Below are positions 31,026 through 43,308 of a stretch of DNA of 64,000 nucleotides, one piece after another. A model generated the notes under the pieces. That model made no database searches and had not been told where the DNA came from. It saw nothing but the letters and a program-made list of their open reading frames with translations. Both the position numbers and the translations under genes were made by a program. Position 1 is the first letter of the stretch, and each line of letters starts with the position of its first letter. Origin of the DNA: an uncultured Spirochaetota bacterium (GTDB taxonomy: Bacteria > Spirochaetota > Brevinematia > Brevinematales > JAOACQ01); contig CAVYGN010000002.1 of NCBI GenBank assembly GCA_963768055.1, positions 1,088,001 to 1,152,000 on the forward strand, read 5' to 3'.

Positions 31026-31853
31026 TTAAAATACCCTGAGTGTATAACCAACCTGCGCAATTAAACACAATTTACCCTCATAATTAGGATCTTCCAGATA
31101 AGTCCCGACGATCAGCACAGCATAAAAATCGCTGAATGGTTTAAGCTCAGGTTCAAAAATAAATACTGCCGATAATCTCTGGGATACATGTTTGGTGCTT
31201 GGAACATTCAGGTTGTAGTAATTTATACCGGCCGTGAAGGGTTTTACGATTTGATAGAGCAGGTATCCGTCGTTTATCCAGTAATAATCATTCGCATTTA
31301 GTATCGCGTCTGCATGCGGTTCATAATAATATCCGCTATAGTTGAGTTTGTACATATAGTTATAACTGTAAGTATCGGCGGCGATAAAATTCCCTAATTG
31401 CATCTTCAGCCTCGGGGCTGCGATTATCCACCACCCGGCCTGATTTAAGGTTTGAGCGTTCGCCTGGGCGGCGGGGCTGTAATCGGAGTTTGCATTGGAT
31501 TCAGTGAGAAATCCGTAACCCAGGGAGTTAAATGTATACTGGTAAGTCCCAATGAAAGTAAAATCAAAAAAAGCGATGGGCTCTATGAATCCGGTAACGC
31601 CTACAGCTTCATCCGAGGGTGTCAGCCAGTTTATAACTCCTGCGTCGATTTTTGAGGTTTTAAAGAGGATGTCGTCGCTTTTTATAAGGGGAAATTCATA
31701 GTAAAACTTTGTGTCGAGAAGGGCCCCCAACGGATTATACTCGCCTGCGAGGGACTGGTCGAGATACCATCCGCTTTGAGCAGCCTCTTGAGAGTAAACC
31801 ATCCCGGCGAGGAAAAGAATTAATACAAGAACGTATAAATTTACCTTCTTCAT
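31026..31853 (-). CDS. Exported protein, possible outer-membrane beta-barrel
   Basis: Signal peptide, aromatic amphipathic strands, C-terminal YTLRVF. Confidence 0.55.
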   Translation of the reverse strand: MKKVNLYVLVLILFLAGMVYSQEAAQSGWYLDQSLAGEYNPLGALLDTKFYYEFPLIKSDDILFKTSKIDAGVINWLTPSDEAVGVTGFIEPIAFFDFTFIGTYQYTFNSLGYGFLTESNANSDYSPAAQANAQTLNQAGWWIIAAPRLKMQLGNFIAADTYSYNYMYKLNYSGYYYEPHADAILNANDYYWINDGYLLYQIVKPFTAGINYYNLNVPSTKHVSQRLSAVFIFEPELKPFSDFYAVLIVGTYLEDPNYEGKLCLIAQVGYTLRVF

Positions 31854-32028
31854 GATAAAACCTCCAAAAATTTATATGAATATTGAAAATATCGGAAATT
31901 TTCATTTAAGATTGAAAAAATTTAAAAATAATCAATTTTATTGCATTAATATTGACAGTACAATTCTCCACAATATAATATTAAAAAACACAGTGCTATC
32001 ATGGAAACCGGAATCAAGGATTTTAAAA

Positions 32029-32964
32029 ATGAAGCATATTATTATCCTTATTCACATTGTTACATTATCGGTGGGTTTCGGTGCAATGTTGCTGTTTTTC
32101 ATAATTTATATTAAGAACAAAACGGAACTGCTCAGGCGTTATATGGTTTTCCTGCTCCTGTTCACAATTTACCTTATTATTAATTTTTTCAATGTTTACA
32201 ATTTAACCGTCATCAATAATCCGGGCCCGGGAATTTATATAATTACAAATACCTTCTATTTTATCTGGTTCGTGTTTTTTATATATCAAATCCCCCTTTT
32301 TATTCATGAACTCATAGGCGTCAGGATGAGTAAGCCGGAGAATTATTTGTTTCTCGGCATGTCGGTGCTTACTATTATATTGCTTGTTCTGCCTTTTGCA
32401 GTAAAGGCCGGGGGCCGTGAGATTCTGGACATGATGAGGTTCGAACTCAAGTTTGTATGCTATGCAATGTTTCTTATCGCTTTTCTCAACACAATCCTGC
32501 TAATCTGGGTTTACAGGCGGAGGATACAGCATGAAATCAACAGGAAGATCCTGAAAACGATTTTACTGATTTGCCTTATCTTTTTACCCGCATTTATAGC
32601 CGACCTTTTCGTCGAGAAATTCAGGATGACGCTTCAGGTCCTTAACTACGGCATCGATTTCGAAATAATTTTTTATCTTGTCTGGAATGTAATCAGCATA
32701 GTCTATATAATACAGTATTTAATAACAAAGATAACGGTTGTTCCCAGCGTCAGGCTATCGGAGGATTTTGTCAGGAAATATTCAATATCCGCAAAAGAAA
32801 AAGAGATTATTTCACTTATAGTTAAGGGTTATAACAATAAGCTGATAGCCGACTGTCTTTTTATAAGTTCCCAGACTGTAAAGAACCATATTTATAATAT
32901 ATACCAGAAAGCATCTGTTAACAGCCGTGCGGAACTTGTCAGCCTCCTGAATCAATATTTTTAA
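32029..32964 (+). CDS. Membrane-anchored (about 7 TM) LuxR-family transcriptional regulator
   Basis: Hydrophobic N-terminal region; C-terminal HTH ISAKEKEIISLIVKGYNNKLIADCLFISSQTVKNHIYNIYQK; start re-placed at ATG 32029. Confidence 0.9.
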   Translation: MKHIIILIHIVTLSVGFGAMLLFFIIYIKNKTELLRRYMVFLLLFTIYLIINFFNVYNLTVINNPGPGIYIITNTFYFIWFVFFIYQIPLFIHELIGVRMSKPENYLFLGMSVLTIILLVLPFAVKAGGREILDMMRFELKFVCYAMFLIAFLNTILLIWVYRRRIQHEINRKILKTILLICLIFLPAFIADLFVEKFRMTLQVLNYGIDFEIIFYLVWNVISIVYIIQYLITKITVVPSVRLSEDFVRKYSISAKEKEIISLIVKGYNNKLIADCLFISSQTVKNHIYNIYQKASVNSRAELVSLLNQYF

Positions 32965-33128
32965 GGACACTTTTAAAAACCTCTTTAAGGTAATGCCCAT
33001 CGGGCGATCATTAGAAAATTAGAATTCTAATTGTTAATCACATGGATAGTTTTTTTAGAACCGCCCATAATACGATTCCCTCCAAAAACTCTAATTAACA
33101 CTTTATTGTCACAAAAAACCTAAAAAAG

Positions 33129-33193
33129 TACCGGAGTACTATCAAAATGTTACCGGAGTACTATTGACCCCCGGGGACGGCAGGCGTGATAAT
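33129..33193 (+). promoter_or_regulatory. Two perfect 14-bp direct repeats abutting a sigma70-like promoter
   Basis: TACCGGAGTACTAT at 33129 and 33151 (22-bp period); TTGACC 33164-33169, GATAAT 33188-33193. Confidence 0.7.
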
Positions 33194-33225
33194 TTTGACG
33201 GTTAAAATATTTTGGGAGGAATGCC

Positions 33226-33381
33226 ATGGAAAAGCGGTATGATTCGGAAAGGTTCATTAAAGTCCCGGTGCGTGAGCTCCTGAAAAGTTTCAGGCCTATA
33301 AACCTTGGTGAATTGAAAGGCCCTATGTTCCAATGTTTAAATATCGGAATTTTTACAGGGCTTGGAACTGTCAAAGCTTAG
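33226..33381 (+). CDS. Unannotated 51-aa peptide MEKRYDSERFIKVPVRELLKSFRPINLGELKGPMFQCLNIGIFTGLGTVKA
   Basis: SD GGGAGGA 5 nt upstream; open frame ending in TAG 19 nt before the next gene's ATG. Confidence 0.7.
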   Translation: MEKRYDSERFIKVPVRELLKSFRPINLGELKGPMFQCLNIGIFTGLGTVKA

Positions 33382-33400
33382 CGGTATCCGGAGCGGGCCG

Positions 33401-34540
33401 ATGAGACCTTCTTTGTTTGTTTTAAGCCTCTGGATAGAAATTTTCGGGATTTTTTGCTATCTCAGAGCTTTATTAAAAAAAAAACTGAGAGTGAAGATTC
33501 CGGGAGCAGAGGGCGGAGAGCGGCCGGAACCGATTGAGCTAAAGGATATGCTCCGGACGATCAGGGTTATGAAGGGTACTATGGCGGGAGAGGACGAGAG
33601 TCTTGGAGCTCTAAAAAAAATGGTGCAGAAACAGCTGTATCTTTCAACTGTTGAGTTCTCCGTATATTTTTTTGCTCTCCGTCATCCCCGTCTTTTTTTG
33701 ATTTATGTTTCAAAGCTGCTCTTTAAAAAATATGAGGATCTTTTCAGAAATAGCTGGAAAGAGGGCGGGAGATTATTTTTCGTACATAATTTTATTGGAG
33801 GCAAGACGGCGATACTAAGCCTTATTTCGGGGTTTATTAATAAAGGGATCAAGTCGATTGTTTTCGTAGATGAAGCGGTCTTCCTGCTTATGAAAAAAAT
33901 GTACGGTGTTATCCTGAAAAGCATTGGGATTGAAGAAAAAGATCATCCCCTTCCGGAAATGGAAATATTCTCTATAAAGGGAAAATTTTTCATGGAATAT
34001 TTCGGGCCTGCCAGCTCCCAAAGCGAAATAATTTTCCTGAACAGCAGGAAAAAAGAAAACCTTAAGAGGGCGCTGGATTATATTAATAAAAATAGTTACA
34101 ACCTTGTAATGATCCCTGAAACTGCCGCTGGCGGAAAAAAAAAGATGCTCGTTAAGTTTTTAGGCAAGGATCTTTTAATTCCCGGGAGTATAGAACCCCT
34201 GTTGAAGGAGGCTGCTTTTTTAATCTCCATCATCCCCGATGCTTCCGAAAACCTGATGCAGCCGGAATTTAAAATTAAGGAATACGAGACCGGGCCGGGA
34301 ACTGAGGCATCTGTTTTGATGCAGTCCGTGCTGAAAAGGTGCGAGAATCTTGCTTTCGTTAGGCCGGAATTATACCTTCCATTTAATTTTCCCTCGATGT
34401 GGAACAATCTTTTCCCTTATGAGAAAGAGGAAAATACGTCAATAATCGATGTCCTTCCCTGGAGGGAAAAATGCCTGATCCTGCTTTCCGACGGGCAATT
34501 CCTGATAGGAAGCAGGGGTAAGCTCAAGGAAATTATTTGA
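33401..34540 (+). CDS. Divergent LpxL/LPLAT-fold acyltransferase-like protein
   Basis: LFFVHNF, NLVMIPE, VKFLGK...PG and ENLAFVRPELY correspond in order to the lipid A acyltransferase blocks; start re-placed at ATG 33401 (GGAG). Confidence 0.5.
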   Translation: MRPSLFVLSLWIEIFGIFCYLRALLKKKLRVKIPGAEGGERPEPIELKDMLRTIRVMKGTMAGEDESLGALKKMVQKQLYLSTVEFSVYFFALRHPRLFLIYVSKLLFKKYEDLFRNSWKEGGRLFFVHNFIGGKTAILSLISGFINKGIKSIVFVDEAVFLLMKKMYGVILKSIGIEEKDHPLPEMEIFSIKGKFFMEYFGPASSQSEIIFLNSRKKENLKRALDYINKNSYNLVMIPETAAGGKKKMLVKFLGKDLLIPGSIEPLLKEAAFLISIIPDASENLMQPEFKIKEYETGPGTEASVLMQSVLKRCENLAFVRPELYLPFNFPSMWNNLFPYEKEENTSIIDVLPWREKCLILLSDGQFLIGSRGKLKEII

Positions 34541-34644: not shown

Positions 34645-34735
34645 TGTCATTTCGAGCATAGCGTTTATCCCGCCTTGGCGGGGAGAAATCTTCCCCAGGG
34701 CAAGATTTCTCGTCGCTGCACTCCTCGAAATGACA
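34645..34735. repeat. REP/MITE-like palindromic element with a nested mini-hairpin
   Basis: TGTCATTTCGAG...CTCGAAATGACA termini, inner GAGAAATCTT/AAGATTTCTC, internal CCCGCC-TT-GGCGGG. Confidence 0.8.
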
Positions 34736-38771: not shown

Positions 38772-39329
38772 TCAGGCCTTTTTTATAGAAATTTTAATAG
38801 AATCATCCCCGGAATTTATTCGATAATTGCCCGGTCCGATTCCCTTAAATTCGATCTCATCTTTATCAGACTTTTTAGAAAACAGGGGAAGACGGTCTCC
38901 CATTCTTTTTATCTCCGTTGGCTGATTTTTGAGGCCCGGCGACTTAATGCTAATCCGGCATTTGCCGCTGTCTCCAGCCTGGACTCCGATTTCAATGTTT
39001 ATTGTCCCGGCAGAACAAATGGCCTTATATACAGCGGGTTTCCCGCTTCTGGTATTTGCGAGAGGCATAAGGCGGGTTTCAACCGAGGGAGAGAATGCGC
39101 TTTCGACCGATCCGTTACGAATTTTAACAATCAGCGAAAGTTCCCGTCTGGCCTTTACAGCGGTGTAAGCGTCGATCCTGGCGTTCAAGCGGTTCAACTC
39201 TGTAATTTCCCCGATGCAATCGCCGCATTTACTGAGATGATCTTCTATAATTTCAAACCTGGATGACTTCCCGTCAAGATAGAGGAGCATTTCATTTTCG
39301 GAAAAATTCCCGCATCCGAAAGCCATCAT
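38772..39329 (-). CDS. Zinc-finger (zf-HC2) anti-sigma-like protein
   Basis: HLSKCGDC; overlaps the stop of the upstream sigma-like gene; soluble beta-rich C-terminus. Confidence 0.7.
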   Translation of the reverse strand: MMAFGCGNFSENEMLLYLDGKSSRFEIIEDHLSKCGDCIGEITELNRLNARIDAYTAVKARRELSLIVKIRNGSVESAFSPSVETRLMPLANTRSGKPAVYKAICSAGTINIEIGVQAGDSGKCRISIKSPGLKNQPTEIKRMGDRLPLFSKKSDKDEIEFKGIGPGNYRINSGDDSIKISIKKA

Positions 39330-40192
39330 AACCTCCTTCCACGGGTATTCATTTTATACATTATGACCATTTTAAGCTTTTTCTTTGACTCCGCGAGGTG
39401 TCTTTTAGCCCTTACGATATTTTCGAAAAGCGGGGCGAAAACGGTAAACAGGTTTTTGTCCGGGGATTCCATATCCCTTATTTTCCTTGTTTTAGCTGCT
39501 TCATACCGCGCGATCCTCCATAATAGGCGGCTACGCTGCTCTCCTGAATTATTCCTGTAAAGCCTGTATTTCAGGTCCCTCAGGATAGAATTTATATAAG
39601 TTATTTTGGAGGCCGACAGCCGGGCTCTCTCGGTTTCATCGGAGCGGGCTTTAATCAGGTTAGCCTGAACAGCAAGAATTTCCCTGATTGTCAGATGAAA
39701 AACTTTCGAAGAGGCCAGGATTTCATCCGAAGTTATAGAAAGAGGCATATAAAAGAACTTAAGCGACAGCCTCTCGATCTCCCGGAGGTTCTGCAAGCAT
39801 TCATGCAGGAATGAATAATCCCTCCCCTCGGTTTCAAACACCTCCGCGGCTGTTTCGTTTTCATGATCCTCAATTCTCAGGTCATGTATGGCCTGCTTCT
39901 TTTGAAAGCGCATGAAATGTGAAAACTGATTCCTGAGGACATAGTTGAACCAGGTTTTAAAAAGAAGGTCCTCTTCCAGCGGGAAATTTTTTATAACACC
40001 TTCAAGCCTTTCAATCATATATATGTAAAATTCGGAGCATGTATCCATGTCTTTCCTGTAAGCCGCGCGGGGGAAATTATATATGTACATATCAGTAAGT
40101 TTTTTAAATTCGGTCATGCTGCGTGAAGAAGCTTCTCCGCCGCCTAAGTAATCGGAGATAGCGCTTTTTATCTTTATGTCGTTCAGGTCCAT
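39326..40192 (-). CDS. Atypical sigma-70/ECF-like factor
   Basis: Region-2-like FKTWFNYVLRN; region-4-like LQNLREIERLSLKFFY; paired with a zf-HC2 gene. Confidence 0.65.
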   Translation of the reverse strand: MDLNDIKIKSAISDYLGGGEASSRSMTEFKKLTDMYIYNFPRAAYRKDMDTCSEFYIYMIERLEGVIKNFPLEEDLLFKTWFNYVLRNQFSHFMRFQKKQAIHDLRIEDHENETAAEVFETEGRDYSFLHECLQNLREIERLSLKFFYMPLSITSDEILASSKVFHLTIREILAVQANLIKARSDETERARLSASKITYINSILRDLKYRLYRNNSGEQRSRLLWRIARYEAAKTRKIRDMESPDKNLFTVFAPLFENIVRAKRHLAESKKKLKMVIMYKMNTRGRRL

Positions 40193-40257
40193 GGAACCCT
40201 CCATTAACGGCGACATTATTTTAGGCAAAAGGATAGGAAAATGCAAGTAAGATTTTA

Positions 40258-41585: not shown

Positions 41586-41670
41586 GGAGAGATGTCCGAG
41601 TGGTTTAAGGAGCGCGCTTGGAAGGCGCGTGTACAGCAATGTACCGGGGGTTCGAATCCCCCTCTCTCCG
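41586..41670 (+). tRNA. tRNA-Ser(GGA), CCA not encoded
   Basis: Acceptor stem GGAGAGA/TCTCTCC + G; anticodon arm CGCGC-TTGGAAG-GCGCG; long variable arm; GGTTCGAATCC. Confidence 0.95.
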
Positions 41671-41820
41671 ATTCCTTCTCATACCTCATTTCATTGCAAT
41701 TAAAGCACTTACACCTCGACTGGTTCCCTAAACGGGAGCCTATCACTAAATTAGCTACAAAGTTCATTTATTGCTTTGGGGGTGTTTTCTATGCTACAAT
41801 TAATCATTGAGGTGCTAAAT

Positions 41821-43308
41821 ATGGCTTTATCTCCAGAAGAAAAAATTAAACTCCTGAAAATTATTCTTTCGGAATATGACTCAATTTCCTATGAAATTCA
41901 AGGTTTATATGATGACCCGATAACTTTTGCTGACAATAAAAACCTTATACTAAGAAGTATTGCTGACCCAGAATCAAAAAACCAGCGGAAATTATTTAAG
42001 TTTTTAGATGATTATTCTGAATTGAACAAACCCTTTATCGATGAATCAATAAGTAAAGAACAGCTTCAATCAGTTTTAAAAAACAAAGTCGGCAAGTTTT
42101 TTATGCAATTGCACGACAATGAATCGAAAAATATTTCCAATATAGTAAAAAAATCTAACGGTGTTTATTATTATAAACGGATGATAGACGGTAATAATAT
42201 TGAATTTTCATTACACACAAAGAACTATATCGAAGCTAATCAAAAGGCTATTGATTATAATAAAAAGCTTGAAGCTAAAATGTTTGATGAGAAATTCCTG
42301 GGCATAAACAATGATAAGAAAGAGCTCTCTCGAGTGCCTAAAAATACCGGTGCTATATCAATCCCAACAAAAAGAGAAGAAACAGATCCAAAAAGAACTT
42401 CTATGCCACATTTATTTGATATGTGGTTAGAAAAAGAAAAAGCATTAGGCAAGGCAAAAACATCTCTCGGGATAAAAAGAAATGTTTGCAATCACGTGAT
42501 TGATAAAATGAAAATATTTTCAATCAACAATATTGACCAGACTTTTATTAACAATTACATTAAATTCCTTTCAAAGTATGAAGTTAATTCCCGGAATAAA
42601 TTTCTTACTCAATTAAAAGCATTTCTCAACTTTCTGATTAAGAACGGCTTGTTTGATAGAAATAAATTGGATGTTTTAGATATTCCAGTTCCCAAGAATA
42701 CTGTGAAAGATACTTACATAGCAGAAGAAGATTTTGAAACAATAAAAAATTATATTAGAGAAAAAGACCCTGATTTTTATCTTTATATTATGACTCTATT
42801 TTATACTCTTTCAAGACCTTCCGAGGCTTTATACCTTAGAAAGCAAGACATAATTTATTCTGAGTCTATAATCAATATTACCATTTCTAAAACTGCCAGG
42901 TCAGGGAAGGACCACAAAACCATACCGATTTTAAATGAATATAAACCTTTGTTATTGGGTTATATTGAGAGTAATCATATTGAAGGATATATATTTAAGG
43001 GAGCTATGAAAGATGGTTTACCAGTTGATATTTCAAGACAAGACTTGATTAAATATATGCAAAATAATTCTTGTGAATATTATTCAAAGAAATTCAGGGA
43101 TGTCAGGGAAAAATTGAAATTGAATCCAGAATATAATTTGAGGGAATTTAGGAAAACATCTGAAATGCTGTTATCAAGAAGCGGAATACCTATTGAATTA
43201 TATACATTATTAGCTGGTAATAGTCCTAAAGTGGCATTAGAAAATTATACTCAATACAGAAAACAACATGATCTCCAAAAATTAAAAACAGTTGAAATAA
43301 AGTATTGA
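41821..43308 (+). CDS. Tyrosine recombinase/integrase with atypical catalytic motifs
   Basis: Arm-binding-like GVYYYKR...SLHTKN; SRPSE (R), SKTAR (K), LREFRKT, LAGNS, ENY (Y); SD GAGGTG. Confidence 0.85.
   Translation: MALSPEEKIKLLKIILSEYDSISYEIQGLYDDPITFADNKNLILRSIADPESKNQRKLFKFLDDYSELNKPFIDESISKEQLQSVLKNKVGKFFMQLHDNESKNISNIVKKSNGVYYYKRMIDGNNIEFSLHTKNYIEANQKAIDYNKKLEAKMFDEKFLGINNDKKELSRVPKNTGAISIPTKREETDPKRTSMPHLFDMWLEKEKALGKAKTSLGIKRNVCNHVIDKMKIFSINNIDQTFINNYIKFLSKYEVNSRNKFLTQLKAFLNFLIKNGLFDRNKLDVLDIPVPKNTVKDTYIAEEDFETIKNYIREKDPDFYLYIMTLFYTLSRPSEALYLRKQDIIYSESIINITISKTARSGKDHKTIPILNEYKPLLLGYIESNHIEGYIFKGAMKDGLPVDISRQDLIKYMQNNSCEYYSKKFRDVREKLKLNPEYNLREFRKTSEMLLSRSGIPIELYTLLAGNSPKVALENYTQYRKQHDLQKLKTVEIKY

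Follow-up and report, generated by a model that had tools for sequence, protein, structure and literature searches.

A Spirochaetota Cassette of a Seven-Helix LuxR-Type Regulator, a Short Peptide with an Invariant Cysteine and a Predicted Acyltransferase-Fold Enzyme

Introduction

The Bacillus ComQXPA system relies on a precursor of 52-73 amino acids in which one fixed residue within a variable C-terminus is lipidated, and the cited account gives no known export route (PMC4008528). Among the fatty-acylated peptides that are ribosomally made and post-translationally modified (RiPPs), the selidamides, lipolanthines, goadvionins and lipoavitides are acylated by GNAT-type enzymes on Lys or Orn side chains or on the N-terminus of cores that are further modified; the introduction of the same source does not mention the lysophospholipid acyltransferase (LPLAT) family in this role (PMC13647313). 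Double-glycine leaders, which are cut by C39/peptidase-containing ABC transporters (PCATs), are recognized through residues at positions -4, -7 and -12 (PMC6363468). Here we describe a three-gene cassette found in a 64,000-nucleotide stretch of an uncultured Spirochaetota bacterium (the window; GenBank assembly GCA_963768055.1, contig CAVYGN010000002.1, positions 1,088,001 to 1,152,000). It encodes a membrane LuxR-type regulator, a short peptide and an enzyme with a predicted LPLAT fold.

The cassette shares with ComQXPA an adjacent, same-strand pair of a lipid-transferring enzyme (here predicted) and a short precursor (49-59 amino acids here), one fixed modifiable residue, a multi-helix membrane sensor, a LuxR/GerE-type output and the lack of a known dedicated exporter (PMC4008528). 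However, ComQ prenylates a Trp, whereas the enzyme of the cassette is predicted to have an LPLAT fold, the fixed residue is a Cys, and the window's peptide has no Trp. Sensor and DNA-binding domain are also fused in one protein, and signaling is a prediction. Neither an isoprenyl transferase, nor a conserved Trp, nor a histidine kinase with its response regulator is part of the cassette. The leader-core precursor beside an acyltransferase-fold gene is reminiscent of fatty-acylated RiPPs, but the LPLAT fold of the model takes the place of the GNAT fold that characterizes enzymes of the selidamide and lipolanthine type, the fixed residue is a Cys, and the cassettes with a LuxR gene (LuxR-type) include no other maturase (PMC13647313). 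As in the diacylglycerol-modified RiPPs (DAG-RiPPs), an invariant Cys would start a lipidated ribosomal peptide; those precursors, however, have a signal peptide and a lipobox and are processed by the host Lgt/Lsp/Lnt enzymes, while the present leaders have no hydrophobic region and a dedicated enzyme is encoded (PMC13056109). By hydropathy alone, the peptides do not fall in the class defined by a hydrophobic signal region and a lipobox. Finally, positions -4 (Pro), -7 and -12 relative to the Cys are conserved in five of six LuxR-type peptides, as in double-glycine leaders (PMC6363468), but no GG motif is present and C39 domains were found in none of the five genomes that carry the cassette.

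No LPLAT-fold RiPP enzyme was found in searches of open-access literature, supplements excepted, where such clusters could be tabulated. On the regulator and the lineage, nothing describing such a system was found by title or the start of the abstract. The cassette stands apart in its minimal make-up of one peptide plus one enzyme, in a single fixed Cys followed by unrelated tails, and in its link to a one-component seven-helix LuxR whose operator is conserved.

Results and Discussion

The Cassette and Its Distribution

The three genes are located on the same (+) strand: the luxR-type regulator gene (32029..32964, 311 amino acids), the peptide open reading frame (ORF; 33226..33381, 51 amino acids) and the enzyme gene (33401..34540, 379 amino acids). 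Coordinates are window positions, and the window's own genome (G000) is 3.69 Mb. A first-pass annotation, made from the nucleotide sequence, had placed the three genes at these positions and proposed that the enzyme acylates the peptide; the strong Shine-Dalgarno sequence that it assigned to the peptide ORF corresponds to GGGAGG at 33214..33219 (+), 6 nucleotides before the ATG. Its term "divergent" for the acyltransferase gene can refer to divergence of sequence alone, because the gene is on the same strand as the other two. Upstream starts at 31852 for the regulator and at 33362 for the enzyme were rejected because the homologues begin at the starts used here.

Upstream DNA could be read in seven loci (G000, G001, G003, G004, G006, L080 and G065), and in all of them a peptide ORF of 40-59 amino acids directly precedes the enzyme gene. 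In six, a 311-amino-acid membrane LuxR is encoded before the peptide gene, with the regulator gene duplicated in G004 and L080. The conservation of a small upstream ORF and of a LuxR gene, which had been suggested as a check of the original proposal, was thus observed in 7/7 and 6/7 loci, respectively. A locus that ends 115 nucleotides upstream of the enzyme gene (L085) and the contexts of seven further homologues (P0006, P0007, P0009-P0011, P0013 and P0014) were left out of these counts. A short precursor with a conserved leader and a variable core beside a putative maturase, found across 7/7 loci, is the arrangement that defines a RiPP cassette, and the peptide is very probably the partner of the enzyme.

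The distant locus, G065, adds to this view. Its cassette (L013:212-3008, - strand) consists of a 40-amino-acid peptide that ends in Cys-Cys-Trp, a homologue of the LPLAT-fold enzyme (E=5.6e-36) that has neither of two residues discussed below, His129 and Glu240, and a radical SAM/SPASM protein encoded after the enzyme. The latter matches RiPP maturases best (TIGR04463, with E=1.7e-41 and a score under the curated cut-off), and no LuxR gene was found near the cassette. Since the enzyme is the only partner of the peptide common to both types of cassette, this one locus offers the strongest sign that the peptide is acted on by the enzyme.

The enzyme family is rare. A word-based search returned two relatives, and a full HMMER scan returned 12 matches at E<=0.001. 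The enzyme was present in 5/61 relatives (the window's genome included), in 5/43 genomes of the class, in six of 401 genomes sampled from the phylum, and in one of eight genomes in the class of G065. Pattern scans added little: L080 and L085 were the true relatives among at least 119 metagenome matches listed; two of 18 matches in a genome scan (L140 and L147) were real and carry the enzyme, but were not counted as extra loci; none of 262 matches in a search of genome contigs was a relative; and the single viral match was not a homologue.

A fourth gene, encoding 128-143 amino acids, follows the enzyme gene in G004 (L006:8105-8563, -), L080 (L080:5278-5664, +) and L085 (L085:1291-1527, +). The G004 and L080 products are 40% identical and have no Pfam match. 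This gene was not found in the window's genome, and it was found in 1/43 genomes of the class. Its product could be an immunity, carrier, output or partner protein.

The Peptide

The peptide ORF is a called gene in a public protein collection, and its comparison with the G003 orthologue shows a coding signature. Mismatches are distributed 18/17/32 over the three codon positions, and 9/21 identical residues are encoded by another synonymous codon. The leader, amino acids 1-36 (33226..33333, +), has 18/36 residues identical to that of G003. The predicted core, amino acids 37-51, starts at Cys37 and, with the stop codon, occupies 33334..33381 (+). The window's genome yielded no second precursor.

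In 8/8 peptides (those of the seven loci and family member P0022), a spaced motif is followed by a Cys. In five of the six LuxR-type loci, the window's included, the motif consists of hydrophobic residues at -15, -12, -10 and -7 and a Pro at -4 relative to the Cys; in G006 it is shifted by one residue. The leader half had been taken at first to end at LKG. However, the Pro of the PMFQ segment is invariant in the six aligned peptides, which means that conservation runs up to Cys37. Leaders and cores were then compared in a shuffle test in which the last 22 leader residues, or the tails after the Cys, were considered similar at Z>=3; kin are not independent in this test. Leaders were similar in 16/28 peptide pairs and cores in 1/28. 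The only pair with similar cores, G001 and P0022, differs at 8/34 leader positions and at 2/15 core positions, so that a core is kept in one lineage and exchanged between lineages. Taken together, a conserved leader and a core kept within and replaced between lineages make Cys37, four residues past the LKG split, the likely boundary.

The leader of G065 resembles those of L080, G004 and G000 (Z 6.0, 4.2 and 3.3) and is not similar to those of G003, G006 or G001 (Z 1.2-1.8). This likeness, seen in one locus, points to recognition of the leader by the enzyme.

The tail that starts at the Cys has 15 amino acids in 4/6 LuxR-type loci and has no conserved residue other than the Cys. Of the hydrophobic tail with Cys and Gly that had been pointed out in the window's peptide, the Cys proved invariant, while hydrophobicity is no trait of the family: the grand average of hydropathy (GRAVY) of the cores ranges from -0.13 to 2.06, from polar to hydrophobic, with those of G000 and G004 being hydrophobic. 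The leaders are charged, with negative GRAVY in 7/7, and the best seven-residue hydropathy in the window's peptide, by this measure alone, is 0.91. These properties bear on the idea that lipidation of the Cys falls to the lipoprotein pathway of the host (Lgt/Lsp/Lnt), with the enzyme in a side role. DAG-RiPPs show this pattern of a product that begins with an invariant Cys from within the precursor (PMC13056109), but in their precursors the Cys comes after a hydrophobic stretch and a lipobox (PMC13056109). The charged leaders, which lack a hydrophobic signal region, argue against this route, and we regard it as highly improbable.

The Enzyme

The AlphaFold2 model of the enzyme (mean predicted local distance difference test score, pLDDT, 84.8) is predicted to have an LPLAT alpha/beta fold like that of PatA and LpxM, in agreement with the fold call originally made by eye. 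Foldseek ranked PatA (E=9e-6) and LpxM (E=1e-5) first, with probability 1.0. VIA-align gave Z 16.4 for PatA (root-mean-square deviation, rmsd, 3.4 over 229 amino acids) and Z 15.6 for LpxM (rmsd 3.8 over 255 amino acids), with the next row at Z 6.9, and the nearest ESM Atlas clusters were LpxL/LpxP acyltransferases (0.92-0.93). In searches of Pfam, NCBIfam and PDB sequences the enzyme had no match. The window protein had no PF03279 match and so did not reach the curated cut-off of that family; of 15 homologues, two had weak matches (best E=0.023). Alignments of the family exclude two fragments (P0008 and P0012) and use the locus translation in place of P0005.

While the enzyme shares its predicted fold with LpxM/LpxL, PatA and VexE of the LPLAT superfamily (PF03279), it is only 8-13% identical to them, has no Pfam match and no HX4D/E motif, has an Ile-Pro-Glu (IPE) in place of the DQ/ER motif, and carries an extra C-terminal tail. 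Its neighbor is a peptide gene in place of glycolipid genes. A C-terminal E..P..W pattern and a V.FLG...P segment align with the lineage's own LpxL. A canonical PF03279 LpxL gene with an intact HX4D motif is located elsewhere in the window's genome, and such a gene is found in 39/41 genomes searched; the reading as a housekeeping lipid A acyltransferase was rejected on account of this separate gene. Where they were checked, the results that would have refuted the proposal made from the nucleotide sequence did not occur: the upstream peptide is conserved, the predicted fold is that of an acyltransferase, and the protein is not an ordinary LpxL.

A specialized lipid or glycolipid acyltransferase under LuxR control, with the small ORF as a regulatory leader peptide or a passenger, would agree with the fact that all top solved structures act on lipids or sugars. 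In several loci, the stretch separating the peptide gene from the enzyme gene can form hairpins (no shuffle control), which also fit a regulatory leader, but hairpins of this kind often follow RiPP precursor genes, too. This explanation is improbable given that the spaced leader motif and one Cys are kept across loci whose enzymes are just 27-58% identical, and that the same pairing of peptide and enzyme stands beside a radical SAM peptide maturase.

The C-terminal tail (about 34442-34534) had been considered as possibly like a RiPP recognition element (RRE) that binds the leader. An RRE, which is PqqD-like, is a three-stranded sheet followed by three helices. The tail is modeled as three strands (348-370) and one helix (372-378) with pLDDT 62-81, and PqqD/RRE was absent from the Pfam results of 15 members and from the structure matches of the whole protein. 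As modeled, the tail does not look like a full RRE; it may bind the leader.

The active site is remodeled, as judged from the alignments. The position five residues after the candidate catalytic His is Gly, Ala or Ser in 15/15 homologues, so that the canonical HX4D/E motif is absent. His129 (33785) is kept in 10/15, with Asn in its place in the G003 orthologue (58% identical), Ile-Pro-Glu240 (ending at 34120) is kept in 12/15, and in P0013 the alignment column of the catalytic His is occupied by a Cys. A basic residue is found at position 135 in 15/15, and Glu85, Pro322, Phe328, Trp334 and Gly365 are fixed. In a low-confidence profile alignment to the lineage's LpxL (probability 1.7% global and 22% local), Phe131 rather than His129 falls on the catalytic His and Pro239 falls on the Asp of the DQ motif, so that in this alignment His129 and Glu240 are each off-register by one or two residues from the LpxL catalytic positions. 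Because the canonical motif is missing, acyl transfer is deduced from fold and context only.

The remodeled active site is where the case for acylation is weakest, but the case survives because PatA and VexE work with altered motifs. Catalysis by PatA involves His126 with Glu200 instead of the HX4D aspartate (PMC4792965), and VexE is an active LPLAT with a Tyr at the D/E position of HX4D/E and the pair H466/D532 (PMC9597891). His129 and Glu240 could, by analogy, be a catalytic pair like that of PatA. Several of the above results weigh against acylation: the absent motif, the variable His129, the register of the LpxL alignment, and the fact that both PatA (PMC4792965) and VexE (PMC9597891) require their His. 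A thiol acceptor may be able to do without a catalytic His. On balance, we think it probable that the enzyme fatty-acylates the peptide.

The same observations can be read in favor of another chemistry, in which the enzyme acts on the peptide by acylating another residue, by using the Cys in a cleavage or thioester-forming step, or, catalytically dead, by binding the leader and presenting its partner at the membrane. The lack of HX4D/E in 15/15 and the variation of His129 while position 135 and five other residues are fixed fit this reading, as does the Cys of P0013 at the catalytic-His column; and as the cassette has no protease, its single enzyme may do more than acyl transfer. However, the PatA/LpxM domain is retained in full (229-255 aligned residues), LpxL/LpxP acyltransferases make up the nearest clusters, activity is possible in divergent LPLATs whose motifs are altered (PMC9597891), and the core offers no other conserved residue to modify. 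We consider this explanation unlikely.

The Regulator and Its Operator

The regulator gene is preceded by a sigma-70-type promoter consensus of predicted function (31952..31979, +; TTGACA-16-TATAAT) that matches 12/12 consensus positions. Its product consists of a seven-helix domain (about amino acids 1-236) fused to a LuxR/GerE helix-turn-helix (PF00196, E=3.4e-16), and its seven hydrophobic segments agree with the multi-transmembrane LuxR described initially. The AlphaFold2 model (pLDDT 77) aligns best to G protein-coupled receptors (GPCRs), with Z 16.3 and rmsd 3.7 over 223 amino acids; all 50 rows listed are GPCRs or a designed GPCR-like protein. The alignment tool itself states that helical bundles reach Z 13-14 by chance. 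Foldseek found nothing at E<=0.001 for the regulator, and all ESM Atlas leads for the sensor domain were below 0.9. Considering the chance level and the Foldseek result, the predicted GPCR likeness of the bundle is evidence of arrangement rather than of descent.

A direct repeat that is a putative operator, likely the LuxR binding site, is located between the regulator and peptide genes (33122..33164, +). Its two 21-nucleotide copies start at 33122 and 33144, 22 nucleotides apart, and contain an exact 14-nucleotide core at 33129 and 33151, the last base of which is the first base of the TTGAC -35 box at 33164. The operator thereby abuts the sigma-70-type promoter consensus of the peptide-enzyme unit (33164..33193, +; TTGACC-18-GATAAT). 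In the whole 3.69-Mb genome, only seven exact four-letter repeats of at least 14 nucleotides with 18-26 nucleotide spacing were found, the operator included. An operator followed immediately by ATTGAC is conserved in five of the six LuxR-type loci; it was not recognized in G001. The direct-repeat promoter of the first-pass annotation is thus borne out.

Seven-helix LuxR regulators occur widely in the family. A tree with 28 regulators groups the eight cassette members with one long-branched outsider (support 98/98), and 0/16 non-cassette relatives have a similar peptide within 1.5 kb downstream. The outsider (L190, in G006), a seven-helix LuxR that belongs to the cassette clade, stands alone, neither a peptide nor an enzyme gene adjoining it; it may be a receptor that only listens, or a relic. 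A non-cassette regulator gene (L182, in G008) has a similar 22-nucleotide repeat and -35 box (about 2450-2530, luxR orientation) before an unrelated gene, which supports the repeat as the putative binding site of the regulator family. In another locus (L184), a half-site and a TTGAC box are found in front of an unrelated gene downstream of a seven-helix luxR.

The original proposal included a possible autoinduction loop in which the membrane LuxR might sense the peptide, on which the conserved operator and the regulator clade bear only indirectly. Several results weigh against such sensing. The L182 regulator, with its similar repeat, drives an unrelated gene, and therefore the operator does not imply peptide sensing. 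The membrane domains of the G004 and L080 regulators are 68% identical while their cores are unrelated, which does not fit tight matching of receptor and core unless few residues, or mainly the acyl-Cys, are read. The operator was found once per genome (G003, G004 and G006 were searched, and no further site was found in the window's genome), so that no downstream output regulon is visible. The sample is also small, six LuxR-type loci, all from kin.

A rival explanation is an acylated peptide that is an antimicrobial or other effector, with the membrane regulator answering an outside cue rather than the peptide. The cores are wholly different between lineages, as are those of bacteriocins, and those of G000 and G004 are hydrophobic. 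Unrelated genes are under the control of related seven-helix regulators, a LuxR is missing from the G065 cassette, and the fourth gene of G004, L080 and L085 (128-143 amino acids) could encode an immunity or partner protein. On the other side, the G000 cassette has neither an exporter nor a candidate immunity gene, the fourth gene occurs in one of 43 class genomes, several cores are polar, and the regulator clade stays tied to the cassette. An effector role of this kind seems rather unlikely.

Proposed Pathway

In the signaling scheme, a LuxR dimer would bind the 22-nucleotide-spaced repeat and activate the peptide-enzyme promoter. The enzyme would bind the conserved leader and, associated with the membrane, would take an acyl group from acyl carrier protein or coenzyme A and transfer the chain to the thiol of Cys37. 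Since a Cys thiol needs less base activation than a sugar hydroxyl, this acceptor could account for the missing canonical His motif. The leader would then be removed before the Cys by a protease encoded elsewhere than in the cassette, and the acyl group could next move to the amine so exposed. The short lipopeptide would leave the cell or partition into the membrane and bind the seven-helix domain, with variable tails giving lineage-specific signals and autoinduction acting on the peptide-enzyme promoter. The full loop, an acyl-cysteine lipopeptide autoinducer made by the enzyme and sensed by the seven-helix LuxR, is advanced as a tentative model, somewhat short of an even chance. We hold as doubtful the broader proposition of a new type of peptide quorum sensing in this spirochaete lineage, in which a rebuilt lipid-A-acyltransferase-fold enzyme acylates the first Cys of a ribosomal peptide, a GPCR-like seven-helix LuxR reads the lipopeptide in the membrane, the lineage-specific tails serve as private signals, and the enzyme family serves radical SAM clusters elsewhere.

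Processing is a further difficulty for the model. As had been noticed at the outset, no protease or exporter is encoded in the G000 cassette, and the leader peptidase and exporter usual in or near RiPP clusters are missing there. Processing by C39 peptidases or, as in agr-type thiolactone systems, by AgrB (PF04647) was rejected because both families are absent from 5/5 cassette genomes. A short S8 subtilase is encoded upstream of both luxR genes in G004 only (L006:12577-13248, -) and is possibly the leader peptidase in that genome. A subtilase homologue of the window's genome belongs to a separate RiPP-like cluster outside the window (G000:C2:1646535-1651836, partly covered by L203), which contains an S8 peptidase, a 634-amino-acid protein, a Cys-rich 79-amino-acid peptide and two radical-SAM-like genes.

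If the model is true, ribosomal lipopeptide biosynthesis would gain an enzyme fold and an acceptor residue (Cys) that are both new to it, in a form of two genes whose enzyme, seemingly tolerant of unrelated cores, would be useful for site-specific lipidation of peptides. It would also provide a candidate ligand for the orphan seven-helix LuxR regulators common in the lineage and a minimal one-component peptide signaling circuit. The system is small, with three short genes and six natural variants.

Neighboring Sequences

A divergent gene upstream of the regulator (31026-31853, -), transcribed away from luxR, encodes a secreted 275-amino-acid protein without a Pfam family and with a beta-barrel-like C-terminal Phe. 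It was excluded from the cassette because it adjoins it in just one other locus, G003. G001, G004 and G006 have homologues at other places, and G002, a genome that also lacks the cassette, yielded none. Downstream, an inverted repeat with 19-nucleotide arms, 84% complementary, lies between the converging enzyme and tetratricopeptide repeat genes (34678-34716) and is possibly a terminator or a mobile repeat. On visual inspection, an ORF pair at 38772-40246 (-) resembles a sigma-factor-like and a zinc-finger anti-sigma protein; it has no significant Pfam match and is nearby in G003 too. A tRNA-like sequence (about 41590-41680) is followed by an integrase-like ORF (41776-43308), and from about 41550 to 64000 the GC content falls to 22-38% over most of the remainder of the window, which suggests an integrated island.

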